A stretch of 34,003 nt of DNA from contig PFGP01000123.1 of NCBI GenBank assembly GCA_002781985.1, positions 1-34,003 of the forward strand, written 5' to 3'. The notes under the pieces were generated by a model. The model did not search any database. It was not told the DNA's origin and worked only from the letters and a program-made list of their open reading frames with translations. The translations under genes were made by a program, and so were the position numbers. Of this stretch, positions 1,034 to 34,003 are shown piece by piece; position 1 is the stretch's first letter; the number at the start of each line of letters is the position of its first letter. The DNA comes from Candidatus Taenaricola geysiri (lineage in GTDB: Bacteria; Omnitrophota; Gorgyraeia; Taenaricolales; Taenaricolaceae).

Positions 1034-1049
1034 GAAGGAGGCGCTTGAT

Positions 1050-2105: not shown

Positions 2106-2106
2106 T

Positions 2107-2874: not shown

Positions 2875-2877
2875 AGC

Positions 2878-3543: not shown

Positions 3544-3545
3544 TC

Positions 3546-13397: not shown

Positions 13398-14060
13398 ATG
13401 GAAAGAAAAGAAAAACTGGTAGAAGGAACTGTTTATCATATTTTTAATAGAAGTATCGCAGATTTCAAGATATTCAATAACGATCTTGAATATCTGCGGA
13501 TAAAAAATATGATAAGATACTATCAAATAGAAAGCGCAGATTTTAAGTTCTCTAAATTTATAACGCTTGAAAAAATCAAAGAAGACGGATTCAACAGCAG
13601 TTTTATTTCTTTTTCACAGGGAAAAGAAAAACTGGTGCAAATAATCGCTTATTGTATCATGCCTACTCATTTTCATTTAATTTTGAAACAGTTGAAAGAA
13701 AAAGGCATATCGATTTTTATGAGAAATATTCTTAATAGCTATAGCCATTATTTTAATATTAAACATAAAAGAAAAGGTCCTTTATGGGAAAGTAGATTTC
13801 AGAATAAATTTGTAGAAACTGACGAACAGTTGTTACATCTCACGAGATATGTGCATTTGAATCCAGTAACTGCTTTTTTGGTTGATAAACCGGAGCAATG
13901 GCTATGGTCTTCATACAATGAATACTTATCAAAAGTAGATAAAGATGAGAAAGTTTGTGATTATGAGGGTATTTTGGATGTTGAGCCGGTTTCCTACGGG
14001 GCGTTTACTGATGAAAGAATTGATTATCAGAGAGAATTGGCAAAGTTAAAAGATTTATAA
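13398..14060 (+). CDS. IS200-like Y1 (HUH) transposase / REP-associated tyrosine transposase-like protein
   Basis: HUH motif in YCIMPTHFHLIL and the catalytic-Tyr region LTRYVHLNPV. By eye the gene is clearly more A+T-rich than both flanks. Confidence 0.75.
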   Translation: MERKEKLVEGTVYHIFNRSIADFKIFNNDLEYLRIKNMIRYYQIESADFKFSKFITLEKIKEDGFNSSFISFSQGKEKLVQIIAYCIMPTHFHLILKQLKEKGISIFMRNILNSYSHYFNIKHKRKGPLWESRFQNKFVETDEQLLHLTRYVHLNPVTAFLVDKPEQWLWSSYNEYLSKVDKDEKVCDYEGILDVEPVSYGAFTDERIDYQRELAKLKDL

Positions 14061-16714: not shown

Positions 16715-17310
16715 ATCGTAAAGATTTATTGTCGGCATATAAAAAAAGAAAAAAAGAAATAAAACAACGCCTGGCGCAGTTTAACCGCGTCCGCAAACTT
16801 GGTAACAAGAGGTTGTTTAAGGAATTGTGTTTTTGTATATGCACCCCGCAATCAAAGGCAGTTAATTGCGATAAGGCGATACAACAGCTTGTTAAGGCAA
16901 AAGCGTTGTATAATGCCGTGCCTGAGGATATAGCTAGATATCTTAAAGGTTTGGTACGTTTTCATAATAACAAGGCGAAATATATAGTCCGGGCCAGGAA
17001 AATATTTTTTGACAGGCCTGAATTGAACCGCAAATGGCTTGTTAAAAATATCAAGGGCCTGGGGCTTAAAGAGGCCAGTCATTTTTTAAGAAACATAGGC
17101 CTTGGAAGTGACTTGGCTATAATAGATAGACATGTATTGACAAATCTCAGCAGGTGTGGTGTAATAAAAAGGATACCTGAAAGCATTTCAGCCAAACAAT
17201 ACCTTATAATTGAAGATAAAATGCGCAGGTTTTCCAAAGATATAGGCATTCCTATGGTAGAGCTTGATTTATTATTTTGGTCCGAAGAAACAGGGCATAT
17301 TTTTAAATAA
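16711..17310 (+). CDS. ogg: archaeal-type 8-oxoguanine DNA glycosylase / N-glycosylase-DNA lyase (Ogg2-like, HhH-GPD)
   Basis: HhH element GLGLKEASHFLRNIG followed by IIDRHVL. Size is about 200 aa, typical of this subgroup. Confidence 0.7.
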   Translation: MNRKDLLSAYKKRKKEIKQRLAQFNRVRKLGNKRLFKELCFCICTPQSKAVNCDKAIQQLVKAKALYNAVPEDIARYLKGLVRFHNNKAKYIVRARKIFFDRPELNRKWLVKNIKGLGLKEASHFLRNIGLGSDLAIIDRHVLTNLSRCGVIKRIPESISAKQYLIIEDKMRRFSKDIGIPMVELDLLFWSEETGHIFK

Positions 17311-17332
17311 TATATATAATAAGGAGAAGTCC

Positions 17333-18664
17333 ATGGCTAAAAAAACAAAGGCAGACGTATTAAAAATTGTAAAAGAGCGCAAGGTTAAATTTATACGCTT
17401 GTGGTTTACGGATGTTTTGGGTTTTTTAAAAGGATTCGCCATTACATCAGATGAACTGGAAAATGCGCTTGATGAGGGCATGGGTTTTGACGGTTCTTCC
17501 ATAGAGGGGTTTGCGCGTATAGAAGAATCCGATATGATCGCAAGGCCTGACATGGATACATTTGCCATACTTCCATGGCGCTCAGGAGACGAATACAGCG
17601 TAGCCAGGATGTTTTGCGATATATACGAGCCAAGTGGCAAGCCGTTTGAGGGCGATCCGCGCTATGTTTTAAAGCGCATGCTTGCAAAGGCAAAGGCCAT
17701 GGGTTTTACATATAATGTCGGGCCTGAGCTTGAATTCTTTTATTTCAAGGATTCGCAGGTTCCCCAGCCGCTGGATAACGGCGGGTATTTTGATCTTGTG
17801 CCGCTTGATGTGGCGCAGGATTTAAGGCGCGATACAATATTTATATTGCAGCAACTTGGCATTCAGGTTGAATATAGCCATCATGAGGTTGCTGCAAGCC
17901 AGCATGAGATAGATCTTCGTTATAAAGACGCCCTTACAATGGCCGATAACGTTATGACATACCGGCTTGTGGTAAAAGAAATTGCCAGAAAACACGGAGT
18001 TTATGCGACATTTATGCCAAAGCCCATATTCGGAATAAACGGTTCAGGTATGCATGTTCATCAGTCATTGTTTAAAGGCGATAAGAACGCGTTTTTTGAC
18101 GCCAAGGGTAAATATAATCTTTCAGAAACCGGCCAGGCGTATACTGCAGGCCTGTTAAAGCATGCGCCTGAAATAACATCTATCACAAGCCAGTGGGTTA
18201 ATTCTTACAAGCGGCTTGTGCCGGGATATGAAGCGCCTATTTATATTTGTTGGGCGCAGATGAACCGTTCTGCGCTTGTGCGCGTGCCTATGTATAAACC
18301 AGGCAAGGAAAAAGCAACGCGTATTGAATATCGGTCTCCTGACCCGGCGTGTAACCCGTATCTTGCGTTTTCGGCGATGCTTGCCGCAGGGCTTGAAGGG
18401 ATAGAAAAGAAATATAAACTTGCGCCTCCGGCAAATGATAATATTTATCATATGAGTGATGAAAAAAAACTCAAGGCCGGCATAAAATCTTTGCCTGAAG
18501 ATTTGTTTGAGGCGATAAAGATTACAGGAAGCAGTAAACTGATAAAAGAATCATTGGGAGAAAAGGTTTTTGAGTATTTTATCCGGAACAAAAAAATGGA
18601 ATGGGATGAATATAAAGCCCAGGTTACACAGTACGAAATAAACAAATACCTGCCTATACTATAA
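17333..18664 (+). CDS. glnA: glutamine synthetase type I
   Basis: The ATG at 17333 is preceded by AAGGAG at 17321-17326; the longer track ORF from 17264 overlaps ogg. Motifs seen: FTDVLG, GFDGSSIEGF, EVAASQHEID, GSGMHVHQSL, NPYLAF. Confidence 0.9.
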   Translation: MAKKTKADVLKIVKERKVKFIRLWFTDVLGFLKGFAITSDELENALDEGMGFDGSSIEGFARIEESDMIARPDMDTFAILPWRSGDEYSVARMFCDIYEPSGKPFEGDPRYVLKRMLAKAKAMGFTYNVGPELEFFYFKDSQVPQPLDNGGYFDLVPLDVAQDLRRDTIFILQQLGIQVEYSHHEVAASQHEIDLRYKDALTMADNVMTYRLVVKEIARKHGVYATFMPKPIFGINGSGMHVHQSLFKGDKNAFFDAKGKYNLSETGQAYTAGLLKHAPEITSITSQWVNSYKRLVPGYEAPIYICWAQMNRSALVRVPMYKPGKEKATRIEYRSPDPACNPYLAFSAMLAAGLEGIEKKYKLAPPANDNIYHMSDEKKLKAGIKSLPEDLFEAIKITGSSKLIKESLGEKVFEYFIRNKKMEWDEYKAQVTQYEINKYLPIL

Positions 18665-18674
18665 AAATACCCTT

Positions 18675-19532
18675 ATGAAGATAATGGATAAAGAAATTTT
18701 ATCAGACGTCCATGGCGTCAGGATTTTACGTATGGATATCCACGCGCCTTTATTGGCTTCAAAGGCTTCCCCCGGGCAGTTTATTGCTGTCATGGCAGTT
18801 GAGCAGGGCGAGAGGATTCCACTGACTGTTGTTGATAGCGATGCAAAAAAGGGCGTGATCACGATCATATTACAGGAGGTTGGCCTGACCACTAAACTTC
18901 TTGGCAGGCTAAACCCGGGAGATTCTTTATATTCCATGGTTGGCCCTCTTGGCCATCCTACAGAAATAAAAAATTACGGCCAGGTGGTTTTAGTCGGCGG
19001 CGGGGTTGGAATAGCCGAGATATATCCTGTAGCAAAGGCATTAAAAAAGGCAGGAAATAAAGTCATAACTATAATCGGCGCCAGGTCAAAAGAGCTTTTA
19101 ATTCTGGAAAAAGAATTAAAAGCGGTTTCAGGCGAATTGCATGTAACTACAGACGATGGTTCTTATGCCAGAAAAGGTTTTGTGACAGATGTGCTGAAAG
19201 ATGTTATTGCGAAATGCGATAATGTAGGGACAGAACAGTGTTCTGTCCCTACAGCCCTTGTTTACGCCGTAGGGCCAATTCCAATGATGAAGGCGGTTTC
19301 ATCCGTTACCAAGCCGGCAGGCATCAAGACATTAGTTTCATTAAACGCGCTTATGGTGGATGCTACGGGTATGTGCGGTTGCTGCCGCGTTACAATCGGC
19401 AATGAAACAAAATTCAGCTGTGTGGACGGGCCTGATTTTGACGCTCATCTTGTGGATTGGGATGAATTGACAAAAAGAAGCAGGATTTATATAGACAAGG
19501 AAAAACATATTTGCAACCTGAATAAATTATGA
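18675..19532 (+). CDS. FAD/NAD(P)-binding ferredoxin-reductase-like subunit with C-terminal [2Fe-2S] motif (NfnA / sulfide dehydrogenase-like)
   Basis: Motifs PGQFI.. and VGGGVGIAE, plus the C-terminal DATGMCGCCRV....FSCVDGP cluster. A 4-nt overlap links it to the next gene. Confidence 0.8.
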   Translation: MKIMDKEILSDVHGVRILRMDIHAPLLASKASPGQFIAVMAVEQGERIPLTVVDSDAKKGVITIILQEVGLTTKLLGRLNPGDSLYSMVGPLGHPTEIKNYGQVVLVGGGVGIAEIYPVAKALKKAGNKVITIIGARSKELLILEKELKAVSGELHVTTDDGSYARKGFVTDVLKDVIAKCDNVGTEQCSVPTALVYAVGPIPMMKAVSSVTKPAGIKTLVSLNALMVDATGMCGCCRVTIGNETKFSCVDGPDFDAHLVDWDELTKRSRIYIDKEKHICNLNKL

Positions 19533-20971
19533 ACAAAACTCCTTTAAAACCAAAAGAAATAGACGCATTGAAAAGATCCGTAAACTTTGATGAGGTGGTG
19601 CTTGGTTACAGTGAAAGCGATGCCCTTGCCGAAGCGGCGCGCTGCATACAGTGCAAGGCGCCGAAATGCGTTGCAGGCTGTCCGGTAGGCATAGGCATAA
19701 AAAAATTTATTTACCAGATAACGCAGAAAGATTACAGGGCGGCATACCGGACGATAAGGGAGAAAAATAATTTTCCTTCTCTTTGCGGCAGGGTCTGCCC
19801 GGCAGAATACCAGTGCAGAAAAACATGCATATTTACTAAAAAAGATGAGCCTTTTGCCAGTGACGGCGCAATCAACATACATTTTTTGGAAAGGTTTATC
19901 GGCGATTACGGGATGAAAAATAAAATTTCTGACGTGATGGGGACAGGTTTAAAACCTGTCCCCATCACGCGGCCGCTTTCTAAATTCAAGGTTGCTATTG
20001 TTGGTTCGGGGCCTGCCGGGCTTTGTTGCGCAGGCGAGCTTGTCAGAAACGGCATAAAGGTTGTTATTTTTGAAGGTTTGCATAAGACAGGCGGAGTGCT
20101 TCGCTATGGCATACCGCCGTTCAGGTTGCCGCGGGATATACTGGATTTTGAAATAAACTGCCTTAAAGACCTGGGCGTTGAAATAGATACCAATTTTATC
20201 GTCGGAAAAACAAAGACTTTAGATGAACTATTTGTTGATGGATTTTCAGCGATATTTTTAGGGCTTGGAGCGGGTATTCCGTCATTTTTAGTCATAAAAG
20301 GCGAAAATCTGTGTAATATATATTCAGCTAATGAATTTTTGACAAGGGTTAACCTGATGTCTGCCTATAAATTCCCCCAGGCGCATACGCCTGTTAATGA
20401 AGGTAAGCATATTATAGTTGTAGGCGGTGGTAATACCGCCATAGATGCTGCAAGGTGCGCCTTGCGCCTTCAGAAAAGAGCAGGCATGAAACCTGATACG
20501 ACCATTGTTTACAGGCGCACAGAAGTTGAAATGCCTGCGCGTAGGCTTGAGATAGAACACGCTAAGGAAGAAGGCGTGATTTTTAGGTTTTTGGTGAAAC
20601 CAAGTGAATTTGTAGGAGATGAAAACGGGTTTGTAAAAAAACTTACAAGCCTTGAATGTACGCTAGGCGAACCTGATGCCTCAGGTAGAAGAAGGCCTGT
20701 TGAAAAGCCCGGCAGTAACTTTGATATGGAATGTGACATGGCTGTTATAGCAGTCGGCCTTAAGGCAAATCAGATTTTAACAAAGGTAACGCCGCAATTA
20801 AAGGTTGATAAATATGGTGATGTTATGGTCAACCCTGAGACAATGGAGACTTCTATAAAAAGGGTTTTTGCGGGAGGCGATATAGTAGGAGGCGAAGGTA
20901 CAGTAATAGAGGCCATGGGAATGGCTAAAAAAGCGGCAAACGGGATAATTAACGTGCTTCGCTCACTGTAA
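19529..20971 (+). CDS. GltD/NfnB-family NAD(P)H-dependent oxidoreductase (glutamate synthase small-subunit-like)
   Basis: N-terminal Cys motifs CIQCKAPKCVAGCP and CGRVCPAEYQCRKTC. Two dinucleotide folds follow: KVAIVGSGPAGL and VVGGGNTAIDAAR. Confidence 0.85.
   Translation: MNKTPLKPKEIDALKRSVNFDEVVLGYSESDALAEAARCIQCKAPKCVAGCPVGIGIKKFIYQITQKDYRAAYRTIREKNNFPSLCGRVCPAEYQCRKTCIFTKKDEPFASDGAINIHFLERFIGDYGMKNKISDVMGTGLKPVPITRPLSKFKVAIVGSGPAGLCCAGELVRNGIKVVIFEGLHKTGGVLRYGIPPFRLPRDILDFEINCLKDLGVEIDTNFIVGKTKTLDELFVDGFSAIFLGLGAGIPSFLVIKGENLCNIYSANEFLTRVNLMSAYKFPQAHTPVNEGKHIIVVGGGNTAIDAARCALRLQKRAGMKPDTTIVYRRTEVEMPARRLEIEHAKEEGVIFRFLVKPSEFVGDENGFVKKLTSLECTLGEPDASGRRRPVEKPGSNFDMECDMAVIAVGLKANQILTKVTPQLKVDKYGDVMVNPETMETSIKRVFAGGDIVGGEGTVIEAMGMAKKAANGIINVLRSL
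19933..19969. repeat. perfect 37-nt palindrome (18-bp arms, 1-nt spacer) inside the nfnB/gltD-like CDS
   Basis: CGTGATGGGGACAGGTTT a AAACCTGTCCCCATCACG, checked base by base against the reading frame. It encodes DVMGTGLKPVPIT. Confidence 0.9.
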
Positions 20972-21009
20972 GAGCGGGCTAAATTTGACAATGTATGTCA
21001 GGCGGAAAA

Positions 21010-22347
21010 ATGAGCAGCAAAATTGAAGCCTTTATGGCAAGGGTGATTGAAAAGAATCCGGGCGAAAAAGAGTTTCACCAGGCAGTAAGAGAGGTGGTTG
21101 AGTCGGTAATGCCGTTTATTGACAAAAATCCGAAATACCAGCAACATAAGGTGTTGGAAAGAATGATTGAGCCTGAGCGCGTAATTATGTTTCGCGTGTC
21201 GTGGCTGGATGATAAAGGCGAGATCCAGGTAAACAGGGGCTTTCGCATACAGATGAACAGCGCCATAGGCCCGTACAAAGGCGGCATTCGTCTTCATCCC
21301 AGCGTAAATCTCGGAGTCCTTAAGTTTTTGGCATTCGAGCAGGTTTTTAAAAATAGTTTAACAACTCTTCCTATGGGTGGGGCCAAGGGTGGTTCTGATT
21401 TTGACCCGAAGGGAAAATCAGATAATGAGGTAATGAAATTCTGCCAGAGTTTTATGACAGAATTACAGAGGTATATAGGCCCTGATACCGATGTGCCTGC
21501 AGGCGATATCGGAACAGGCGGCCGCGAAATAGGGTATATGTTCGGTCAGTACAAAAGGTTGCGCAATGAATTTACAGGAGTGTTAACAGGAAAAGCTTTA
21601 AATTGGGGCGGAAGTTTGATAAGGCCTGGAGCAACAGGTTATGGCTGTGTTTATTTTGTGCAGGAAATGTTGAAGACAAGAGGAGAATCTTTTAAAGGTA
21701 AAATATGCGCTGTTTCAGGTTCAGGAAACGTCGCGCAATATACAGTGGAGAAACTTATTGAATTAGGGGCGAAGGTTGTAACACTTTCTGATTCAAACGG
21801 TTTTATTCATGACGAAGGTGGCATAGACAAAAAAGAGCTTGATTGCGTTTTACACCTCAAGAACGTGAAAAGGGCAAGGATTAAGGATTGCGCAAAGGAA
21901 TTTGGCTGCAAGTATTTTGAAGGCGAGCGGCCATGGAGGATAAAATGCGATATAGCGTTTCCTTCAGCTACACAGAATGAAATAAGCGAGGCTGACGCAA
22001 AGGCTCTGGTCAAAAACGGCTGTATGGCAATAGGTGAAGGCGCCAATATGCCTACAACTCCTGAAGGTATAAAGGTTTTTCAGGACGCAAAGATTCTTTA
22101 TGCTCCTGGAAAGGCAGCCAACGCAGGCGGTGTCGCGACAAGCGGCTTGGAGATGTCGCAGAACAGTATGAGGCTGTCATGGACAAGGGAAGAAGTTGAC
22201 AGAAGACTGCACGACATAATGATAGCGATACACGAACAGTGTGTCAAATACGGCAAGGAAGGCAAATACATCAATTATGTAAAAGGCGCTAACATTGCCG
22301 GATTTGTAAAAGTCGCTGATGCGATGATTGACCAGGGCCTGGTTTAA
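21010..22347 (+). CDS. gdhA: NADP-type glutamate dehydrogenase
   Basis: Motifs GGIRLHP, PMGGAKGGSDFDPKGKS and GSGNVAQY. The start is uncertain: ATG 21010 has an AGG/GGA purine patch upstream, while ATG 20995 is 5 codons longer with no SD. Confidence 0.85.
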   Translation: MSSKIEAFMARVIEKNPGEKEFHQAVREVVESVMPFIDKNPKYQQHKVLERMIEPERVIMFRVSWLDDKGEIQVNRGFRIQMNSAIGPYKGGIRLHPSVNLGVLKFLAFEQVFKNSLTTLPMGGAKGGSDFDPKGKSDNEVMKFCQSFMTELQRYIGPDTDVPAGDIGTGGREIGYMFGQYKRLRNEFTGVLTGKALNWGGSLIRPGATGYGCVYFVQEMLKTRGESFKGKICAVSGSGNVAQYTVEKLIELGAKVVTLSDSNGFIHDEGGIDKKELDCVLHLKNVKRARIKDCAKEFGCKYFEGERPWRIKCDIAFPSATQNEISEADAKALVKNGCMAIGEGANMPTTPEGIKVFQDAKILYAPGKAANAGGVATSGLEMSQNSMRLSWTREEVDRRLHDIMIAIHEQCVKYGKEGKYINYVKGANIAGFVKVADAMIDQGLV

Positions 22348-22366
22348 AAATCAATCAAGATCAGTA

Positions 22367-22395
22367 TTGACAAGTATCGTATTTTGTGATAAAAT
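22367..22395 (+). promoter_or_regulatory. sigma70-type promoter with extended -10 (TTGACA-17-TGaTAAAAT)
   Basis: TTGACA at 22367-22372, TG at 22387-22388, TAAAAT at 22390-22395. Confidence 0.55.
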
Positions 22396-22446
22396 TAAAA
22401 CAATAATAGAATAGAGCGCAATGTAAGCGCTTAAAAAAGGGACAAT

Positions 22447-22489
22447 GGCGTTTTATGTCGTACAACTGACGTAAAACGCCTTATTTTTT
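22447..22489 (+). terminator. leader terminator/attenuator hairpin L1, immediately before the GAF-ANTAR start codon
   Basis: A 13-bp stem (GGCGTTTTATGTC/GACGTAAAACGCC, one G-U pair) encloses an 8-nt loop. The run TTATTTTTT follows and ends at the ATG (22490). It lies downstream of the predicted promoter. Confidence 0.6.
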
Positions 22490-23191
22490 ATGGAAAATAT
22501 AAATTTTCAAGAAAATATAAAAGCGCTGTCTAAAATAAGCAAGGCAATAGCCTCAGATTTATATCTTGAGGATATTTTGCGTCTTATAGTCAGCGTTACG
22601 GCAGAGGTAATGGGTTCTAATATATGTTCTCTAATACTTGTAGATGAAGCAAAACAGGAGCTGGTTATTAGGGCTACACAAAGCATTAGTGAAGAGTATA
22701 ACAAGAAAAAGCCTCTTAAGATAGGCGAAGGCATTGCGGGAAAAGCTATTGAGCAAAATAGGCCTATTGTGGTAAAAGACGTAACAAAGGAAGCCGAGTA
22801 TAAGCATAAAGATATAGCGAAAAAAGAAGGCCTCAAATCGCTTTTATGTGTTCCGCTGGTGGTAAAAAACAAGGTTATAGGCGCAATAAACTGCTATACA
22901 AACAAGGCCCACAATTTTAGCGATACGGAAATCAACATCCTCACTTCAATAGCTAGCCAGGCGGCTGTTGCCATAGAGAACACAGAGTTGTTGGTAAAGA
23001 CAAAAATAATAAGAGAGGAACTCGAGGCGCGTAAAAAAGTAGAGCGCGCAAAAGGTATTTTAATGAAAGAGGAAGGTATGGCAGAGGACCAGGCTTACCT
23101 GAAGCTTCAGAAATACAGTATGGACATGCGAAAGAGCATGCGCGAAGTCGCAGAAGCTATTATTCTGGCCCACGAATTTAAGAAACAATAA
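22490..23191 (+). CDS. GAF + ANTAR domain RNA-binding antitermination regulator
   Basis: N-terminal GAF domain (..ICSLILVDE..ELVIRA.., GEGIAGKAIE, AINCY). C-terminal ANTAR region (RKKVERAKGILMKEEGMAEDQAYLKLQKYSMDMRKSMREVAEAII). No SD precedes the ATG. Confidence 0.85.
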   Translation: MENINFQENIKALSKISKAIASDLYLEDILRLIVSVTAEVMGSNICSLILVDEAKQELVIRATQSISEEYNKKKPLKIGEGIAGKAIEQNRPIVVKDVTKEAEYKHKDIAKKEGLKSLLCVPLVVKNKVIGAINCYTNKAHNFSDTEINILTSIASQAAVAIENTELLVKTKIIREELEARKKVERAKGILMKEEGMAEDQAYLKLQKYSMDMRKSMREVAEAIILAHEFKKQ

Positions 23192-23209
23192 TAAAGAAAG
23201 GATGGGGTT

Positions 23210-24793
23210 ATGAATCTGTTAAAGCCTAATAGCAACGACGCTACAGGGACTTTTAATCGTTCGAAAAACGTAGTACCGTGTTCAGGTTTGTGTTCAAAGT
23301 GTCTTGAGTCATGCAGGGGCAATTGCGAGATTTTCAAATCTTCATTTAGAGGCAGAGAGGTTATATATCCGGGGCCGTTTGGAGAGATGACAGCCGGCGG
23401 CGATAAAAATTATCCGATAGATTATTCTCATCTTAATATACAGGGCTATGCCCAGGGCGCAAAAGGCCTGGAAAAAGGTATAGAGGGCAATCCTGACACA
23501 GCTACATTTCCCGATGTGGATACCCAGATAGAATACGGCTGGGATAAAAAGGTAAAGATGCAGGTACCGATTTTTACCGGCGCCTTAGGATCGACGGAAA
23601 TCGCGCGTAAACATTGGGAATCTTTTGCTATAGGCGCCGCGATATCAGGCATTACACTTGTGTGCGGGGAAAATGTTTGCGGTATTGACCCGAAACTTGA
23701 GCTGGATTTCAAAGGCAAAATTACCAAGGCGCCTGACATGGACAGGCGTATTGAGGCGTATAAAAAGTTTCATAATGGTTTCGGCGAAATACTTGTTCAG
23801 ATGAACGTCGAAGATACCAGGCTTGGCGTCGCGGAGTATGTAAGAAAAAAACACAGTTTGGAAACTATAGAGTTGAAATGGGGCCAGGGCGCAAAGTGTA
23901 TAGGCGGTGAGATAAAAGTAAAAAGTATTGAAAGGGCGCAGGAGCTTAAAAAGCGCGGCTATATTGTTACGCCTGACCCGACAGTTCATGCAACACAGGA
24001 AGCGTTTAAAGACAAGGCGATAAAGGAATTTGAAAGGCATTCGCGGCTTGGTTTTGTCTCCGAGGAAAGCTTTATGAAAGAGATAAAGCGCTTAAGAGAC
24101 CTCGGGTTTAAGAGAATAACCTTAAAGACAGGCGCTTATTCAATGGTTGAGCTTGCGCAGGCGATTAAATTTTCGTCAATGGCGAATATAGATTTATTGA
24201 CAATTGACGGCGCGCCCGGCGGCACAGGGATGAGCCCGTGGCGCATGATGCAGGAATGGGGCATACCGACATTTTATCTGGAAGCGCTTATGTATGAATT
24301 TTGTGAGAAATTGGCAAAAAAGAAAATGAGAATTCCTGATATTGCGATGGCAGGCGGATTTTCCCTGGAGGATCACGTTTTTAAGGCCATAGCAATGGGC
24401 GCGCCTTATGTAAAAGCGGTTTGCATGGGAAGGGCGTTAATGATACCCGGTTTTGTCGGTAAGAATATAGAGGAATGGATTAAAACCAATACATTGCCGT
24501 CTACCGTATCCGAATTCGGCAAGACCGCCAAAGAGATATTCGTTTCTTATGAAGAGCTTGCGGATAAATACGGCAAGGACATGAAAGATATTCCTTTGGG
24601 CGCTGTCGGGGTTTATACATTCAGCCAGAGAATAAGAGTTGGTTTGCAGCAATTGATGGCAGGCTCCAGAAATTTTAAGGTAAACACCATTTCAAGAAAA
24701 GACCTGATGAGCCTGACAGAAGATGCGGCAAAGGTGTCAGGTATCGCTTATGTAATGGATGCCTACAGAAAAGAGGCCGAAGCGGTTCTTTAA
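23210..24793 (+). CDS. glutamate synthase-related FMN/Fe-S domain protein (GltB central domain only) with N-terminal Cys cluster
   Basis: Motifs IDGAPGGTGMSPW and AMAGGFSLEDHVFKAIAMGA. The N-terminal cluster reads CSGLCSKCLESCRGNC. No Ntn-amidotransferase or GXGXG domain is present. Confidence 0.8.
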   Translation: MNLLKPNSNDATGTFNRSKNVVPCSGLCSKCLESCRGNCEIFKSSFRGREVIYPGPFGEMTAGGDKNYPIDYSHLNIQGYAQGAKGLEKGIEGNPDTATFPDVDTQIEYGWDKKVKMQVPIFTGALGSTEIARKHWESFAIGAAISGITLVCGENVCGIDPKLELDFKGKITKAPDMDRRIEAYKKFHNGFGEILVQMNVEDTRLGVAEYVRKKHSLETIELKWGQGAKCIGGEIKVKSIERAQELKKRGYIVTPDPTVHATQEAFKDKAIKEFERHSRLGFVSEESFMKEIKRLRDLGFKRITLKTGAYSMVELAQAIKFSSMANIDLLTIDGAPGGTGMSPWRMMQEWGIPTFYLEALMYEFCEKLAKKKMRIPDIAMAGGFSLEDHVFKAIAMGAPYVKAVCMGRALMIPGFVGKNIEEWIKTNTLPSTVSEFGKTAKEIFVSYEELADKYGKDMKDIPLGAVGVYTFSQRIRVGLQQLMAGSRNFKVNTISRKDLMSLTEDAAKVSGIAYVMDAYRKEAEAVL

Positions 24794-25075: not shown

Positions 25076-25111
25076 AATAGATAGTCCAAAGAAGAACTGC
25101 TAGATCAAAAC

Positions 25112-25155
25112 AATGGCGTTTAGAGGCTGAATTGCCGGCCCTAAACGCCATTTTT
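25112..25155 (+). terminator. leader terminator/attenuator hairpin L2 upstream of pyrG
   Basis: Perfect 12-bp stem AATGGCGTTTAG/CTAAACGCCATT with an inner GGC..GCC helix. It runs into TTTTT (25151-25155). The pyrG SD GAGGAG lies 25 nt further on. Confidence 0.6.
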
Positions 25156-25160
25156 AATGA

Positions 25161-26812
<1,652 letters not shown>

Positions 26813-26813
<1 letters not shown>

Positions 26814-27922
26814 TGAATGCGATATTAGCGTTAGAAGACGGAAAAATATTCAGAGGCAGGTCTTTTGGAGCAGGCGGCGAAAGATACGGGGAGGTTGTGT
26901 TTAATACCAGTATGACTGGTTATCAGGAGATACTAACCGACCCATCTTATAAAGGCCAAATAGTTACAATGACTTATCCTTTGATAGGAAACTATGGGGT
27001 AAATAAAGAGGACGTAGAATCGCATAAGCCTTTTGTCGAGGGATTTGTTGTTAAGGAATACAGCAAGATCGCAAGTAATTGGCATTCGCAGCAGTCTCTG
27101 GGCGATTATCTTAAGGAAAATAACATACTCGGCATAGAAGGTATTGATACTCGGCAGCTGACCTTGCATATAAGGCTTGTAGGCGCGATGAAAGCGGTTC
27201 TGTCAACAATTGATTTAGATGAAAAGGCCCTTGTTAAAAAAGCGAAGAATTCAAAGGGGCTGGTAGGCATTGACCTGGTTAAAGAGGTTACCTGTAAAAA
27301 GCCGTATGAATGGAAAACCAAGGCCGCCCCGGGTACGGTCTTTGGTAAAAGGGTGGTGGTGGTTGACTGCGGGGTTAAATTTAATATATTGCGCAATTTG
27401 CAAAGAGTAGGTTGTCAGGTTATGGTTGTCCCGGCAACGACAACTGCAAATGATATTTTAAAAATAAAACCGGACGGGGTTTTGTTTTCAAACGGCCCTG
27501 GCGACCCATCCGCGGTTTCGTATGTTATAGAGACAACCAGCCGGCTGATAGGTAAGCTTCCGGTATTCGGCATATGCCTTGGCCAGCAGATGCTTGGCCT
27601 TGCTTTTGGCGGGAAGACATATAAGCTTAAATTTGGGCATCATGGCGGCAATCAACCGGTAAAAGATTTAAAAACAGGAAAGGCCTTTATATCGGTGCAA
27701 AACCACGGATTTTGTGTGGACATGGATTCGCTTGATAAAAAAGATATAGAGATAACGCATATAAATTTAAATGATAAGACGCTTGAGGGTTTACGGCATA
27801 AAAAACTGCCTATATTTTCCGTGCAGTTTCATCCGGAGGCCTCGCCTGGCCCGCATGACGCGCAATATTTGTTTAAAAGATTTGTGGAGATGATGGAGAA
27901 ACACCGTGCCAAAAAGAACTGA
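26813..27922 (+). CDS. carA: carbamoyl-phosphate synthase small (glutaminase) subunit, catalytic triad intact
   Basis: Motifs [24 protein letters not shown] (nucleophile Cys) and [13 protein letters not shown] (His/Glu). The start overlaps the pyrG stop (TAATG). Confidence 0.9.
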
Positions 27923-29537
27923 TATCAAAAAGATTTTAATAATCGGTTCCGGCCCAATAGTAATAGGCCAGGCATGCGAATTTGATTATTCAGGTTCCCA
28001 GGCGTGTAAGATCCTGCGCCAGGAGGGCTTTAAGGTTGTGCTTGTCAATTCAAACCCTGCTACTATAATGACAGACCCTGATATTGCTGACAGGACTTAT
28101 ATAGAGCCAATAACAACAGAGGTCATAGAGAAGATTATTGAAAGAGAAAGGCCATGCGCCTTGCTTGCCACACTGGGTGGCCAGACCGCGTTAAACGCGG
28201 CAGTTGACCTGGATAAAAAAGGTATACTTAAGAAATACAAGGTGGAGGTAATAGGCGCCAATATCGCCGCTATAAAAAAAGGCGAGGACAGGTGTTTATT
28301 CAAACTGGCTATGGAGAAGATAGGCCTTGATTTGCCAAAAAGCGACAAGGCGTATAATCAGAAAGAGGCAGCAGATGTTGTTCAGAAGATAGGTTTTCCG
28401 GTTATTATACGCCCGAGTTTTACTTTAGGCGGCGCAGGCGGCAGCATTGCATATAATATGGAAGAATTTAAAGAGCTTGCCAAACGCGGCTTGGAGTCCA
28501 GCATGATAAGCGAGATCCTTATAGAGGAATCGGTTGCAGGCTGGAAAGAATTTGAGCTTGAGGTGATGCGCGACAAAAAGGATAACGTTGTAATTATCTG
28601 CTCAATAGAAAATTTTGATCCAATGGGTATCCATACAGGCGACTCTATTACAGTCGCGCCTATACAGACATTGACTGACAGGCAATACCAAAAGATGCGA
28701 GATGCGGCCATTGCGTGTATACGCGAAATAGGCGTTGAGACAGGGGGGTCTAATATACAGTTTGCGGTTGACCCGAAAAACGGCCGCATGGTTGTTATTG
28801 AAATGAACCCAAGGGTTTCAAGGAGTTCTGCTTTGGCGTCAAAGGCAACGGGTTTTCCTATAGCAAAGATCGCGGCAAAGCTTGCCGTCGGATACACACT
28901 GGATGAAATCTCAAACGATATAACAAAAGAAACGCCCGCGTGTTTTGAGCCGTCGATAGATTACTGCGTGGTCAAAATACCGCGCTTTACATTCGAGAAA
29001 TTTAAGGCGTCAAATTCAACTTTAACTGTATCAATGAAATCGGTAGGCGAGGCGATGTCCATAGGCAGGACTTTTAAAGAGGCGCTGCAAAAAGGCCTGC
29101 GTTCGCTTGAGATAAAAAAATCAGGGCTTGAGTCCCTCAGGATAAAGGATATAGAGCTTATTTACGAAAAATTAAGAACGCCGAATGCCGAGCGCATATT
29201 TTTTATAGCCGATGCAATAAGGTTTGGGATGAGCCTTGAAGAAATAAACAAAATGACTTCAATAGACCCGTGGTTTTTATATAATATTAAGGAGATAATA
29301 GATACTGAGAAAGAGATAATAAAGAATAAAAGTAGTATTACCAAAGAGCTTTTGACAAAAGCAAAGGAATATGGTTTCAGCGATAAGCAGCTGGGTGGGC
29401 TTTTGGGCAAATCCGAAGAAGAGGCCTATAAACTGCGCAAATCCATGAATATCGCCCCAAATTTTAAGCTGGTTGATACTTGCGCTGCGGAGTTTCGCGC
29501 CTTCACCCCGTATTATTACTCCACATACGATAGTTAA
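27906..29537 (+). CDS. carB: carbamoyl-phosphate synthase large subunit, N-terminal half only (split CarB)
   Basis: The GTG start lies 6 nt after GGAGA. N-terminus [36 protein letters not shown]-grasp motifs ([36 protein letters not shown]) and an oligomerisation region are present. The ORF ends ..[11 protein letters not shown]-stop after 543 aa. Confidence 0.9.
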
Positions 29538-29544
29538 TTTTGTA

Positions 29545-29572
29545 TTGACAGTTTTCCAGATAGTGGTATAAT
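29545..29572 (+). promoter_or_regulatory. consensus sigma70 promoter with extended -10 (TTGACA-16-TGgTATAAT)
   Basis: TTGACA at 29545-29550, TG at 29564-29565, TATAAT at 29567-29572. Confidence 0.6.
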
Positions 29573-29581
29573 GTGTTAAAC

Positions 29582-29627
29582 AACGGCGTTTGAGTGTTGG
29601 ATTGTCAGCACTAAAAGCGCCGTTTTT
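29582..29627 (+). terminator. leader terminator/attenuator hairpin L3 upstream of the DUF1846 gene
   Basis: AACGGCGTTTGAGTG...CACTAAAAgCGCCGTT forms about 15 bp with one bulge and one mismatch. It runs into TTTTT (29623-29627). The hairpin begins about 3 nt after the predicted transcription start. Confidence 0.55.
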
Positions 29628-29646
29628 CTAAAACCAATACCCTCCA

Positions 29647-31170
29647 ATGAAAAAAAATGGCTTCGATAACGAGAAATATCTAAAAGAACAAACCGCCGCG
29701 ATATTAGGCAGGGTTGCCGAATTCGGCAACAAGCTTTATCTTGAATTCGGCGGAAAGCTCTGCTTTGATTATCATGCCGCGCGCGTCCTTCCGGGATATG
29801 ACCCCAACGTAAAAATAAGGCTACTTCAAAAATTAAAAGATAAAATAGAGATAGTTTTATGTATCTATTCCGGAGATATTGAAAAAGGCAGGGTCAGGGG
29901 CGATTTCGGAATAACATATGACGCTGCCACATTTAAATTGATTGACGACCTGAGGAAATGGGGGCTTGATATATCATCGGTTGTTATTACCAGGTTTACG
30001 AATCAATCAGCGGCAGTTACATTCAAGAACAAATTAGAGCGCAGGGGCGTAAAGGTATACCTGCATTATCCTATAAAAAATTATCCCACAAATATAGATT
30101 TAGTCGCAAGCGATAAGGGTTTTGGAAAGAACGATTATATAAAAACCAAAAAACCCATTGTGATAATAACCGGGCCAGGGCCTAACAGCGGCAAGCTCGC
30201 CACATGTTTATCGCAATTGTACCAGGAGCATAAAAAGGGGATAAACGCCGGTTATGCGAAATTTGAGACGTTTCCTATCTGGAATATTCCGTTGAAACAT
30301 CCTGTTAATGTCGCCTATGAGGCGGCAACCGCGGACATACAGGATTTTAACCTGGTTGATCCGCATCATTTTAAAAAATATAAAAAGAAAGTGATTAATT
30401 ATAATCGCGACGTCGAAAGCTTTCCGATATTAAAATCAATACTTGCTAAAATATGTGACGGTAAAAAAACCATGCCCGTGTATAATTCACCTACTGATAT
30501 GGGTGTAAACCGGGCCGGTTTTGGCATAGTAAACGACAAAATAGTTCAAGAGGCAGCCAAGCAGGAGTTGATAAGGAGGTATTTCAGGTATAATGCCGAA
30601 TACCTTCTTGGTATAGAAAAGAAAGAGACGGTTCAGCGCGCAATGGATTTGATGAAAGAGTTGGGTGTGGACGTTACTGACAGGCCCGTAGTCAATGTTG
30701 CCAGAAAAGCGTCAGAAGATGCCGAAAAGAAAGGCAAGGGCTTCGCCGGTATTTATTGCGGCGCGGCGCTTGAGTTAAAAAATGGGAAGATTGTAACAGG
30801 CAAGAATTCGAAGTTGATGCATGCGGCGTCAAGCCTTGTGATAAATGCGGTTAAAGTGTTGGCAAAGATACCGGATGAAATATTGCTTTTATCGCCGCAG
30901 ATAATAAGGCAGATATCAGTATTAAAGGAAAGCATTTTGGGTTTGGAGCCGGAGAGTCTGGATTTGGAGGAGGCCCTGATAGCCCTTTCAATAAGCGCGA
31001 CTACGAATCACACAGCCGAGATAGCGATGAAGAAATTGGCGGAGTTGCGCGGTTGCCAGATGCACATAACTCATATATCTACCCCGGGCGATGAGGTAGG
31101 ATTAAAGATGCTGGGCGTAAATGTGACAACAGACGGTAAGTTTTCTTCAAATAATTTGTTTGTTACGTAG
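29647..31170 (+). CDS. DUF1846 / UPF0371 family protein (function unknown)
   Basis: Colinear with the recalled Firmicutes UPF0371 pattern. Shared motifs: FD.EKYL, KLYLEFGGK, HAARVLPGY, LHYPIK.YPT, GPGP.SGKLATC, GYAKFETFPIWN.PL.HPVN.AYEAATAD, NYNRD.E.FP.LK, SPTDMGVN. No SD is present; CCCTCC precedes the ATG. Confidence 0.85.
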   Translation: MKKNGFDNEKYLKEQTAAILGRVAEFGNKLYLEFGGKLCFDYHAARVLPGYDPNVKIRLLQKLKDKIEIVLCIYSGDIEKGRVRGDFGITYDAATFKLIDDLRKWGLDISSVVITRFTNQSAAVTFKNKLERRGVKVYLHYPIKNYPTNIDLVASDKGFGKNDYIKTKKPIVIITGPGPNSGKLATCLSQLYQEHKKGINAGYAKFETFPIWNIPLKHPVNVAYEAATADIQDFNLVDPHHFKKYKKKVINYNRDVESFPILKSILAKICDGKKTMPVYNSPTDMGVNRAGFGIVNDKIVQEAAKQELIRRYFRYNAEYLLGIEKKETVQRAMDLMKELGVDVTDRPVVNVARKASEDAEKKGKGFAGIYCGAALELKNGKIVTGKNSKLMHAASSLVINAVKVLAKIPDEILLLSPQIIRQISVLKESILGLEPESLDLEEALIALSISATTNHTAEIAMKKLAELRGCQMHITHISTPGDEVGLKMLGVNVTTDGKFSSNNLFVT

Positions 31171-31180
31171 AGGGAGAGCT

Positions 31181-32284
31181 ATGAAAGCGATACTGGTGCT
31201 TGAAAACGGAAGTGTATATGAAGGCACCGCCTGCGGCGCTGCCGGCGAGAGGGTTGGAGACGTCATTATCAATACGGCTGTCGTTGGTTATCAGGAGATG
31301 GTTACAGATGCAGCCAATGCCGGAAAGATAATTGTTTTGACATATCCTTTGATAGGAAATTACGGCGTAGCGAAAAAATTCAGTGAATCAAGCAAATGTC
31401 AGGCTGCCGGATTGGTTATAAAAGAGATGTCAAGGATGTATTCTAATTGGCAGGCAGAAGGGCCTTTTGGTGAATTTTTGAAAAAAGAAAACGCTGTTGC
31501 GATAAGCGGCATTGACACAAGGACGCTCTCGGTTGAAATAAGAGATAAAGGCGAGCAGCCAGGCATAATATCAACTAAGGATTTTAATAAAGAATCGCTG
31601 CTTAAAAAAATAAAGAATCATAAAAAAGAAGGTTTTATAAAAGATACATCAGTAAAAAAACCGGTAGAATTTAAGGCAGGCGTTTTGAAATACAATATCG
31701 GTGTTGTGGATTTGGGCATGCCGAGGAGTTTTATCAGGCAGCTAAATACTCTTGGCTGCAATGTGATATTATTGCCTTATGATACGCCAAGCGCCAAGAT
31801 AATGGCGTTGAATTTAAACGGCCTAATTGTATCAAGCGGGCCTGAAAATGATCCGGCTATCCCGGATATCGCGGAAAATGTAAAAAATCTTTTAGGAAAG
31901 ATGCCTATTATGGGTATTTCAACAGGGCATCATGTTTTGGGGCTTGCTCTCGGCGGTAAACTGAAGAAGATGAAGATTGGGCATCACGGCGTGAATTATC
32001 CTATAAAAGCACTTGATTCATTTAAGGGCGATATCACTGCCCAGAATCATTCATACGTTCTGGATGAGGCAGGCATAAAGAATAGAAAAGACGTAAATAT
32101 AACGTTGCGGAATATAAATGACGATTCAATAGAGGAAATGGAAAGCAAGCCCCTGAAGTTTTTATCAGCGCAATATTGCCCTGCGAGCCCAGGATTTAAT
32201 GAGGTAAACGAGGCGTTTGAAAGATTTCTTAACATGACAAAATCAAACAAGGCTACAAAAGGGGTGCAACATGCCAAAGCGTAA
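31181..32284 (+). CDS. CarA paralogue with degenerate glutaminase active site (pseudo-glutaminase small subunit)
   Basis: The ATG at 31181 follows AGGGAGAG. The N-terminal half is conserved ([10 protein letters not shown] identical to CarA1). However GICLG is replaced by GISTG and FHPEASPG by YCP-ASPG. Confidence 0.85.
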
Positions 32285-34003
32285 AGACATAAAAAGGATT
32301 TTAATGATAGGTTCCGGCCCTATAGTTATAGGCCAGGCATGTGAATTTGATTATTCCGGTTCTCAGGCGTGTAAGGCGTTAAGAGAAGAGGGTTATTTTA
32401 CAATACTCGTCAATTCAAACCCGGCTACTATAATGACAGATCCTAATATGGCCGATGTTACGTATATAGAGCCGCTTAATATAGAAACTGTTATAGAAAT
32501 AATAAAAAAGGAAAAGCCCGACGCTATATTGCCTACTTTGGGCGGCCAGACAGGATTAAATTTGGCGTTTTTTCTTATGAAGCAGGGTATTTTGAAAAAA
32601 TACGGGATTGAATCAATAGGCGCGGATGTTGATGCCATCTCGCGCGCCGAGGACAGGGAATTGTTTAAAAAGGCGATGCTTGAGATAGGCGTAAGCATGC
32701 CGAAAAGCGGTATTGCCCACAGTGTTGAAGAGGGGATGAAGATTGGGCTTAAGATCGGGTTTCCTCTTATATTAAGGCCTGCGTATACGCTTGGCGGAAG
32801 CGGTGGTTCAATCGCGTATAATAAGGAAGAGTTGGAGATATTTTTGGCAAAAGGCCTTGAGATAAGTCCTGTAGCCCAGATTCTGGTAGAGCAATCTGTC
32901 CTTGGGTGGAAAGAGATAGAGTTTGAGGTAATGAGGGATTGCGTGGACAATGTCATTATGATCACGTCCATGGAAAATGTTGACCCTATGGGCGTGCACA
33001 CCGGCGACAGTATTGTTGTGGCGCCTTCTCAGACTTTGACGAAAGAGGAATACTCTAATTTTGTAAATCTTTCTAAAAAAATCATAAGAAAAATAGGTAT
33101 AACAGGCGGCGGCGCGAACATACAGTTTGCGCAGAATCCGGATAACGGTGAAATAGTAATTATAGAGGTAAATCCGCGTCTTTCAAGGAGTTCTGCTTTG
33201 GCGTCAAAGGCAACAGGCTTTCCTATTGCGCGCGTTGCAACAAAGCTTGCGGTAGGCCTTACTTTGCCTGAGGTATTAAATCAGGTAACAGGAAAGACAA
33301 CCGCGTTTTTTGAGCCCACAGTCGATTACTGTGTATTTAAAATATGCAGGTTCACGTTTGAAAAATTCCCAGGGACAAAAAGGATATTGAATACATCAAT
33401 GAAGGCGGTCGGGGAAGCTATGTCAATAGGAAGGAATTTCCGCGAGGCATTGCAGAAAGGCATCAGGTCCATAGAGACAAAAAGGTTTGGCTTAGGCGCT
33501 GACGGTAAGGATAAGATAACAGACGATATGCTTAAAAATCCGTCGCCGGAGATTACAGGCGAAATAAAGGATATGATACGCAAGCCCAATGACGGCAGGT
33601 TTTTTTATTTAAGGTATGCGATAAAAATAGGATTGACTACGGATGAGATATACGAGTTGTCTAAGATAGACAGGTGGTTTATTGACAACCTGAGGCAGAT
33701 TGTGGAAACAGAGGATGAGATAAAAAAATACAGGAATAAAAATATAGACGATGAAATAAATATGCCAAAAGAGATGTTTGTCAGGGCAAAGACGCACGGT
33801 TTTTCCGATGTGCAGCTGGCAGTGCTTTTAAATTCAAGGGAGAAGAATGTGAGGCAGGCAAGAAAAAAATTAAATATAAAGCCGGCGTATAAATTGGTTG
33901 ACACCTGCGCAGGCGAGTTTAAGGCAGAGAAGCCTTATTATTATTCCACTTACGAGACAAAGAATGAAAGCGCGCCGTCTTCTGATAAGAAAAAGGTGCT
34001 TAT
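32271..34003 (+). CDS. carB: carbamoyl-phosphate synthase large subunit, second copy, 3' end beyond window
   Basis: This ORF is not in the supplied ORF track because it has no stop in the window. I translated it by hand from ATG 32271 (AAGGGG upstream) and the frame stays open to 34003. It begins [33 protein letters not shown] and reads through the half-molecule junction (..[24 protein letters not shown]..). Confidence 0.9.

Follow-up and report, generated by a model that had tools for sequence, protein, structure and literature searches.

A conserved carbamoyl-phosphate synthase small subunit without the glutaminase triad in Omnitrophota, encoded next to a pyrJ homologue

The eubacterial carbamoyl-phosphate synthases (CPSs) characterised to date are all glutamine-dependent (PMC8121099), and a CPS that works on ammonia alone and carries a dead glutaminase domain is usually seen as a speciality of the vertebrate urea cycle. 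Here we analyse carA2, a gene for a paralogue of the CPS small subunit that lies in a stretch of 34,003 nucleotides from Candidatus Taenaricola geysiri, Omnitrophota (contig PFGP01000123.1; this whole stretch is called the window), together with carB2, the gene of its large subunit, and with a second, canonical small-subunit gene, carA1. CarA2 has lost the Cys-His-Glu glutaminase triad, and the reading that we consider probable is that CarA2-CarB2 is a complete CPS with a glutaminase-dead small subunit and free ammonia as nitrogen substrate. Several described systems invite comparison. Vertebrate CPS I (human CPS1, PDB 5DOU/5DOT) uses ammonia only and keeps an inactive glutaminase-like domain; Ser294 stands there in place of the catalytic Cys, and the ancestral tunnel is closed off by Gln318, which corresponds to E. 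coli Gly293. For ammonia from outside, a path into human CPS1 along the interface to a conserved gate has been proposed (PMC4655335). Fitness data from Bacteroides thetaiotaomicron point to the orphan CarB2 (BT3866) as an ammonium-dependent CPS whose use follows the ammonium supply (PMC8121099). For CTP synthesis, the Streptococcus pneumoniae DUF1846 protein Spd_0310 was renamed PyrJ and found to be synthetically lethal with pyrG, a defect rescued by cytidine; the purified protein converts UTP to CTP with ammonia and not with glutamine (bioRxiv 10.1101/2024.09.24.614635). The same pneumococcal protein had earlier been named a hemin-binding protein (PMC9238395).

The product of carA2 comprises 367 residues (stop codon at 32282-32284), and AGGGAGAG is found immediately 5' of its ATG at 31181. 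Pfam detected the N-terminal domain of the CPSase small chain (PF00988, E=1.5e-42) and the C-terminal class I amidotransferase domain (PF00117, E=7.1e-28), and the match to TIGR01368 reached 332.1 bits, above the equivalog cut-off of 307.35. CarA1 and CarA2 share 40% identity over 369 columns in BLASTP; a 10-residue N-terminal motif is identical in both, the nucleophile motif GICLGQQ of CarA1 reads GISTGHH in CarA2, a 12-residue motif of CarA1 faces one of 11 residues in CarA2, and SNGPGDP of CarA1 is changed to SSGPENDP. These motifs and the coordinates of carA2 had been given in a prediction made from the letters of the window (called the original prediction here), and each was reproduced by a check of the open reading frame (ORF) and by BLASTP. 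E. coli numbering was transferred to CarA2 through a HMMER alignment to the CarA structures 1c30/1t36 (E=1.6e-59). At the position of Cys269 CarA2 carries Ser247 (31919-31921), at the position of His353 it carries Cys333 (32177-32179), Glu355 has no counterpart due to a deletion, and Gly243-Asp-Pro is replaced by Glu-Asn-Asp-Pro with a one-residue insertion. The triad region is anchored by the invariant flanks G267, G271-H272, Q351, P354 and P358-G359, which makes an alternative placement of the triad impossible and rules out that it was misaligned or sits elsewhere in CarA2. The loss of the entire triad, the central claim of the original prediction, was therefore borne out, as were the individual substitutions.

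The same loss is seen throughout the family, which was sampled as the 120 best database matches of CarA2 (58-99% identity); their named sources are metagenome-assembled genomes of Omnitrophota and Ratteibacteria. In 120/120 of these closest homologues the triad is absent and the ORF intact. The position of Cys269 is occupied by Ser in 85, Ala in 24, Gly in 6, Val in 2 and other residues in the rest, so that no substitute nucleophile is conserved; the position of His353 is Tyr in 79, Asn in 19, Cys in 9 and Asp in 8, and Glu355 is deleted in all 120. Around the former active site the pocket is remodelled in a consistent manner: Gly243 is replaced by Glu in 120/120 and Pro245 by Asp in 119/120, Glu also predominates in place of Gln273, and Ser47 has given way to Ala or Thr; Lys202 varies. 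On the interface side Pro360 is replaced by Phe and His361 by Asp or Asn, with Phe360 and Glu362 invariant in the family. Further pocket and tunnel residues are invariant (D45, G241, H272, H290, N294, Q310, N311, H312, Q351, P358 and G359), and the position of Ala309 is Val in 113/120 members. With members of the family 58-71% identical, about 100 columns in total are invariant or near-invariant. Residue 73 of CarA2 (31397-31399) is a near-invariant, family-specific Cys of the N-terminal domain (ESxKCW) that is missing in CarA1 and in E. coli CarA.

An AlphaFold2 model of CarA2 built on a 122-sequence alignment reached a pLDDT of 91.7 and a pTM of 0.91 and replaced a discarded model from 12 sequences (pLDDT 66). 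Its superposition on E. coli CarA spans the whole chain, at a TM-score of 0.89-0.90 and a root mean square deviation of 2.4-2.8 Å (1cs0_B, TM-score 0.90), and the fold is predicted with confidence to be intact. Against the N-terminal part of human CPS1 the model gave a TM-score of 0.84-0.86. The likeness to CPS I extends to the inactivation, as CarA2 is likewise inactive by its sequence, with the catalytic Cys replaced by Ser in both proteins, and to the position of Gly293, which a bulky Val occupies in 98/120 family members. However, human CPS1 depends on N-acetylglutamate and consists of one polypeptide of 1500 residues, whereas CarA2-CarB2 is encoded by two overlapping genes; human CPS1 keeps the His and the Glu, whereas CarA2 lacks both and has acquired the one-residue insertion giving GPExDP; and CarB2 has Thr instead of the gate residue Cys232, unlike human CPS1. 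CarA2-CarB2 is bacterial and of independent origin, an analogue rather than a member of CPS I, and the likeness is convergent. With E. coli CarAB (CPS II) it has the two-subunit architecture, the fold and tunnel residues in common. The glutaminase-dead or tunnel-blocked E. coli forms (C269S, 1c30; G359F, 1m6v) are laboratory mutants, in contrast to the natural dead state of CarA2.

Between species, carA2 shows a rate of nonsynonymous substitution (dN) of 0.28-0.38 with saturated synonymous substitution (dS), at which dN/dS is not computable, and selection was assessed from dN and from a strain comparison with two substitutions. For the same genome pair the dN of CarA2 is about twice that of CarA1 (0.38 vs 0.18). 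From these values and the conserved columns, selection on carA2 appears clearly purifying, though relaxed. The original prediction had named relaxed selection as a sign of pseudogenisation; the faster dN agrees with relaxation, but the purifying selection is clear and no decay was seen. In a crude neighbour-joining tree the CarA2 family nests among other bacterial CarA lineages. The dead state of the family is a natural and ancient one that additional conserved substitutions have refined.

The complete large subunit could be read from contigs of the same organism (loci compared with the window are cited by their L numbers; here L005/L006). CarB2 is a full-length protein of 1094 residues whose alignment to E. 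coli CarB scores 1287 bits (residues 1-1086 on 1-1070 of 1bxr_A) and which contains all CarB domains, namely two ATP-grasp halves, the oligomerisation domain and the MGS-like allosteric domain (Pfam), in agreement with its membership in NF003671/TIGR01369. A residue-by-residue check of the catalytic sites of the N-terminal half found the nucleotide, bicarbonate and metal ligands R129, R169, E215, H243, N283, Q285, E299, N301 and R303 kept, and most tunnel residues are kept as well. As judged from these residues, CarB2 is a catalytically intact but divergent CarB. Its divergence includes the exchange of Arg265 for Val and of Cys232 for Thr, a signature present in 13/13 CarB2-type sequences; both residues are retained in 23/23 canonical CarBs, and among Firmicutes CarBs Cys232 is kept in 66/66 and Arg265 in 65/66. 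Residues A314, A251 and C232 form the ammonia tunnel gate of CPS (PMC8674909).

The pairing of the two subunits is reflected in the gene order. A CarB gene lies directly 3' of carA2 in 17/17 contexts that show the downstream gene (8 of these 17 are cut by a contig end), and its product has 1081-1103 residues wherever the contig permits. CarB2-type genes directly follow carA2-type genes in L001, L003, L087, L088 and L090-L096 as well as in the distant L174 and L175. A C-terminal [YH]AK[AT] tail is present in 86/120 CarA2 family members and corresponds to the carB start ATG-CCN-AAR-CG (MPKR) read in the frame of carA2; since this tail is kept in the family, the overlap of carA2 with carB2 is conserved. 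On these grounds carA2 and carB2 are probably translationally coupled, and their products are predicted to pair. The proposal that CarA2 is maintained as a structural subunit was upheld by the 120/120 intact relatives, the conserved coupling to carB and the confidently predicted fold.

That such an enzyme could work with ammonia is suggested by the E. coli system. The E. coli variants C269S and C269G lose glutamine-dependent synthesis and keep ammonia-dependent synthesis. E. coli CPS with a blocked or perforated ammonia tunnel is still active on ammonia (PMC4655335), and E. coli CarB purified without its small subunit acts as an ammonium-dependent CPS according to the account of Trotta (1971) given in PMC8121099. 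Because glutaminase-less E. coli enzymes work on ammonia, ammonia use by CarA2-CarB2 is feasible. We infer from the residues and the genomic context that ammonia is the likely substrate of CarA2-CarB2, by which route it may enter, and that the work may be divided between a glutamine and an ammonium module. In the mechanism we propose, CarA2 would be retained as the structural and activating partner that CarB presumably needs, and it would probably form part of the path that leads external ammonia to the carboxyphosphate site. Mutation of alphaP360, alphaH361 and betaR265 by Kim and Raushel in 2004 is said to have perforated the tunnel wall. As a lead only, a natural side entrance for ammonia is a possibility in CarA2-CarB2, where these three positions are changed.

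The gene directly upstream of carA2 encodes a DUF1846 protein that we call PyrJ. It matches PF08903 (E=3.6e-158), PF20921 (E=7.7e-52), NF010184 (724.6 bits, cut-off 631) and, over residues 1-504, PDB 7F00 (E=2.4e-149), such that the similarity to Spd_0310-type proteins is full-length. DUF1846 adjoins carA2-carB2 in the window (L005), L003, L087 and L088 and is two genes off in L001. This corresponds to 5/9 carA2 contexts, as opposed to 1/73 canonical CarA loci (Fisher p=2.7e-5). L116 is a further locus noted for DUF1846. In the mechanism proposed here, carA2-carB2 would be expressed together with pyrJ as an 'ammonium' module that parallels a 'glutamine' module of pyrG, carA1 and the gene for the N-terminal half of a CarB (carB1N), and both nitrogen-requiring steps of pyrimidine synthesis, as well as the carbamoyl phosphate for arginine, could be fed from either donor. 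S. pneumoniae PyrG and PyrJ likewise provide a glutamine-using and an ammonia-only enzyme for one step, and the same logic is proposed here for CarA1 and CarA2; yet PyrJ and PyrG have unrelated folds, whereas CarA2-CarB2 and the canonical enzyme are paralogues, the reaction differs, and clustering of the pneumococcal genes with CPS genes is not reported, unlike in the window. BT3866 resembles the Omnitrophota enzyme in being a second CPS alongside a canonical glutamine-dependent CarAB that sits in a nitrogen-assimilation locus, but it lacks any small subunit, whereas the Omnitrophota CPS keeps the pseudo-glutaminase subunit and the link to pyrJ.

The glutamine module of the window has a peculiarity of its own. 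CarB1N has 543 residues with pre-ATP-grasp, ATP-grasp and oligomerisation domains and ends (YYYSTYDS) at the linker between the halves. Such N-half-only CarBs form a conserved Omnitrophota family of 553-557 residues and about 80% identity; CarB1N shares 68-72% identity with canonical CarBs of full length and only 56% with the N-terminal half of CarB2. Genes for CarB C-terminal halves of 514-530 residues occur in relatives, either adjacent (L109, L129, L143) or in unrelated contexts, and no C-terminal half was found in the DNA of this organism that we examined. It is probably encoded elsewhere in the genome; alternatively, CarB1N may act as a homodimeric half-enzyme. The coexistence of CarA2 with a glutamine-dependent CarA1 system, which the original prediction had assumed, thus stands as far as the intact triad of CarA1 is concerned, but the adjacent CarB is only an N-terminal half. 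A likeness exists to the split CPS of Aquifex aeolicus with its separate GLN, CPS.A and CPS.B genes (PMC6022934), as CarB1N likewise stops exactly at the half boundary; this likeness concerns the CarA1 system, not CarA2. The trio pyrG-carA1-carB1N is also found in L003, L004, L089, L107 and L111, and pyrG is always the first gene of the carA1 unit. The window hence appears to place a glutamine set, pyrG-carA1-carB1N, beside an ammonium set, pyrJ-carA2-carB2.

These observations can be set against other explanations of CarA2. The one closest to our own is that CarA2 serves as a ligand-sensing or gating subunit whose remodelled pocket binds a metabolite or forms a gated ammonia port and thereby controls CarB2. 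The new invariant residues indeed sit in the old active site (Glu243 in 120/120, Asp245 in 119/120, Phe360 and Glu362), Q310, N311 and H312 are still invariant, and the changes of Arg265 and gate residue Cys232 in CarB2 co-vary with them in 13/13 sequences, while canonical CarBs retain both. No ligand can be named, however, and glutamine is an unlikely one because Ser47, Gly243 and Gln273, which hold its backbone, are all changed. We regard sensing or gating as rather unlikely, and it would refine the ammonia-dependent reading rather than exclude it. A further explanation has ammonia delivered to CarB2 in trans, by CarA1 or by another amidotransferase or deaminase of the cluster, with CarA2 only holding the complex together. 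The richness of the cluster in glutamine amidotransferases, the presence of glutamate dehydrogenase (GDH) and the fact that carA1 adjoins only half a CarB speak for it. It is nevertheless improbable: each carA overlaps its own carB, which implies translational coupling of cognate partners, the N-terminal halves of CarB1N and CarB2 are only 56% identical and differ at interface position 265, the docking site for the small subunit would be occupied by CarA2, and in several genomes the 10 kb around carA2-carB2 contain no carA1.

Residual hydrolysis of glutamine or of another amide through a non-canonical set of residues, for example with Ser247 as nucleophile, is very improbable. Although the nucleophile elbow of the window's CarA2 does hold a Ser, and a Cys stands where the His would be, the elbow is Ala, Gly or Val in 32/120 relatives, a variability for which Ser247 was rejected as substitute nucleophile; the catalytic His gives way to Tyr, Asn, Cys or Asp, the acid is deleted, oxyanion and substrate-binding positions are altered, and E. 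coli C269S (1c30) was crystallised as a glutaminase-dead mutant. That carA2 is a pseudogene decaying after duplication, for which only the roughly twofold faster evolution relative to CarA1 (dN 0.38 vs 0.18) could be cited, is the least credible explanation; intact ORFs in at least 120 clusters across a phylum, the many invariant columns, the conserved carB overlap and the confident predicted fold exclude it, and family conservation effectively refutes it.

CarA proteins without the nucleophile are found well beyond the CarA2 family. When the 150 nearest representatives of CarA2 were taken from a library of 1.8 billion proteins, about half lacked the Cys, with many deep lineages among them. 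One genome per GTDB species was then scanned with the pattern P[IML][FL]G[IVY][GA]LGHQ, derived from a 6-sequence alignment and aimed at the Cys-to-Gly type, not at the Omnitrophota CarA2 type; it returned at least 538 species with a CarA bearing Gly or Ala at the nucleophile position. The best 80 of these 538 were fetched as loci L007-L086, and in 80/80 a CarB gene directly follows (75 full-length, 5 cut by a contig end). Among them are Sporosarcina (S. ureae DSM 2281, S. soli and others), Filibacter, Savagea, Lederbergia, Siminovitchia, Oceanobacillus, some Enterococcus and Pelotomaculum. In S. ureae DSM 2281 (L062, 6001-7098), the one locus checked for its operon, the Cys-less CarA is pyrAA of a pyrR-pyrP-pyrB-pyrC-pyrAA-pyrAB-pyrK-pyrD-pyrF operon, and therefore the CPS of the pyrimidine operon works there without a glutaminase nucleophile. 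Sporosarcina is ureolytic and lives in ammonia-rich habitats, an ecology that fits a nucleophile-less CPS. A triad-less CarA of 47% identity was found in another pyr cluster. A metagenome scan yielded 7 CarA2-type loci among 80, with the generic TYPLIGNY pattern saturating the matches.

The Cys-less PyrAA-PyrAB pairs (Sporosarcina, Savagea, Lederbergia, Siminovitchia, some Enterococcus and others) share with CarA2 the lost nucleophile and the CarB gene directly downstream. Their losses are, however, independent of that in CarA2 and mostly shallower; many retain His353 and Glu355 (QFHPE), which suggests that they may be more recent. Many likewise retain both Arg265 and Cys232 in their CarB, unlike CarB2, and lack a pyrJ within 6 kb. 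The identity of the group to CarA2 is about 35-40%. A Cys-less CarA is consequently no rare or unique trait but a widespread one. Our literature searches found no paper that characterises a bacterial triad-less CarA or the Sporosarcina CPS, nor a follow-up on the Bacteroides CarB2. The original prediction's statement that no characterised bacterial equivalent was known therefore holds for triad-less CarA, but it has to be amended by the genetic precedent of the orphan CarB2 of B. thetaiotaomicron (PMC8121099). NCBI records list the relatives of CarA2 under the name 'glutamine-hydrolyzing carbamoyl-phosphate synthase small subunit', the label given by PGAP-type models such as TIGR01368, whose cut-off CarA2 passes; for CarA2-type proteins this label is a systematic and misleading over-annotation.

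The intergenic regions of the window contain elements that might regulate the two modules (Table 1). A hairpin with the motif CAAYGGCGTTT...AAACGCC followed by a U-run is predicted by folding in the leaders of the GAF-ANTAR gene, pyrG and pyrJ, each of which sits 3' of a promoter-like site. The pyrJ leader hairpin has a predicted free energy of -23.9 kcal/mol (z -3.4). Leader hairpins were also found in L003 (3573-3608), L088 (6820-6857), L089 (7205-7239) and L116 (7955-7988), and Rfam recognised no known RNA family in the window, the leaders included. The three leaders are candidate attenuators of one nitrogen regulon, and the GAF-ANTAR protein is a candidate antiterminator of the cluster.

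Table 1. Coordinates of carA2 and of the neighbouring features in the window.
Feature	Position	Strand	Remarks
GAF-ANTAR regulator gene	22490..23191	+	own leader (22443-22489) with the same hairpin motif as the pyrG and pyrJ leaders
Leader hairpin and U-run	25111..25155	+	upstream of pyrG; motif CAATGGCGTTT...AAACGCC
pyrG, glutamine-dependent CTP synthase	25191..26813	+	first gene of pyrG-carA1-carB1N; PF06418, PF00117
carA1, canonical small subunit	26813..27922	+	triad Cys255/His340/Glu342 intact; TIGR01368 527.8 bits
carB1N, N-terminal half of CarB only	27906..29537	+	overlaps the end of carA1 by 17 nt
Promoter-like site	29545..29572	+	carB1N-pyrJ gap; perfect sigma-70 consensus (TTGACA-16 nt-TATAAT, TG-extended); consensus match only
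Leader hairpin and U-run, terminator/attenuator-like	29581/29582..29631	+	between the promoter-like site and pyrJ; opens with CAACGGCGTTT
pyrJ homologue (DUF1846/UPF0371)	29647..31170	+	directly upstream of carA2; PF08903, PF20921, NF010184, PDB 7F00
carA2, CPS small-subunit paralogue, pseudo-glutaminase	31181..32284	+	Pfam, HMMER, BLASTP, AlphaFold2 model
carB2, 5' part	32271..34003	+	runs off the window; ATG overlaps the 3' end of carA2 by 14 nt (32271-32284)

The modules lie next to a dense nitrogen-assimilation cluster (17264-24793 and, in L005, 18532-21632). It contains a type III-like glutamine synthetase (GS), a PyrK-like/GltD-like pair, GDH, the GAF-ANTAR gene and a stand-alone Glu_synthase (FMN) domain protein of 527 residues with no NCBIfam match; a second GS and a full GltB make up its downstream part. 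Related genomes have almost their full complement of glutamine amidotransferases (PurF, PurQ/L, GuaA, GlmS and NadE) grouped in this cluster. Elsewhere in the window, a trehalose cluster (80-4757) comprises an OtsA-like GT20 gene cut by the window start, an MscS-type channel, a trehalose phosphatase, a DUF5752 gene and a TreT-like trehalose synthase, and an ORF of 220 residues (13398-14060) with a weak match to IS200-like Y1 transposases (E=3.8e-7) could be a gene resembling REP-associated tyrosine transposases, or a remnant.

The claim of a glutamine-independent CPS, which in the original prediction was an inference, is one still, strengthened by the pyrJ link and by the Cys-less CarA-CarB pairs in pyr operons. 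Several points weigh against it. Ammonia use by the CarA2 family is deduced solely from sequence and context, and the function of PyrJ is known from one preprint on a distant Streptococcus homologue. No DUF1846 lies within about 8 kb of carA2 in 4/9 contexts (L090, L091, L094 and L096). The type of leader hairpin is the same in both modules, and therefore a differential regulation by ammonium is not evident. The carA2 genomes without an adjacent carA1 were judged by their neighbourhood, and a CarA1 may lie elsewhere in them. With Glu243, Asp245, Phe360 and Glu362 invariant, the remodelled pocket is strongly conserved, which hints at a role beyond scaffolding that our preferred explanation does not specify.

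A wider reading would join these strands. In it, bacteria would repeatedly have evolved CPS I-like, ammonia-dedicated CPSs, and in Omnitrophota CarA2 would have been rebuilt as an ammonia-intake or ammonia-sensing device with a co-evolved CarB, expressed with PyrJ as an ammonium module that runs parallel to, or is switched against, the glutamine module of PyrG, CarA1 and the split CarB. The device would consist of the invariant Glu243, Asp245, Phe360 and Glu362, of Val293 plugging the old tunnel, and of Val and Thr at CarB positions 265 and 232. We put this forward tentatively, as a possibility that is at present more doubtful than convincing; if true, it would overturn the textbook rule that bacterial CPSs are all glutamine-dependent.

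Vertebrate CPS I is the known example of a CPS that uses ammonia and carries an inactive glutaminase moiety. The version of bacteria with two subunits, its conserved remodelling, the coupling to pyrJ and the breadth of the phenomenon among bacteria appear to be uncharacterised so far. The mislabelling as 'glutamine-hydrolyzing' misleads the metabolic reconstruction of uncultured phyla. Similar losses in hundreds of species, including the culturable Sporosarcina, make the question directly testable. The arrangement of pyrJ-carA2-carB2 beside pyrG-carA1-carB suggests a general design principle, in which nitrogen-requiring steps of biosynthesis may be duplicated into versions for the glutamine and the ammonium donor.

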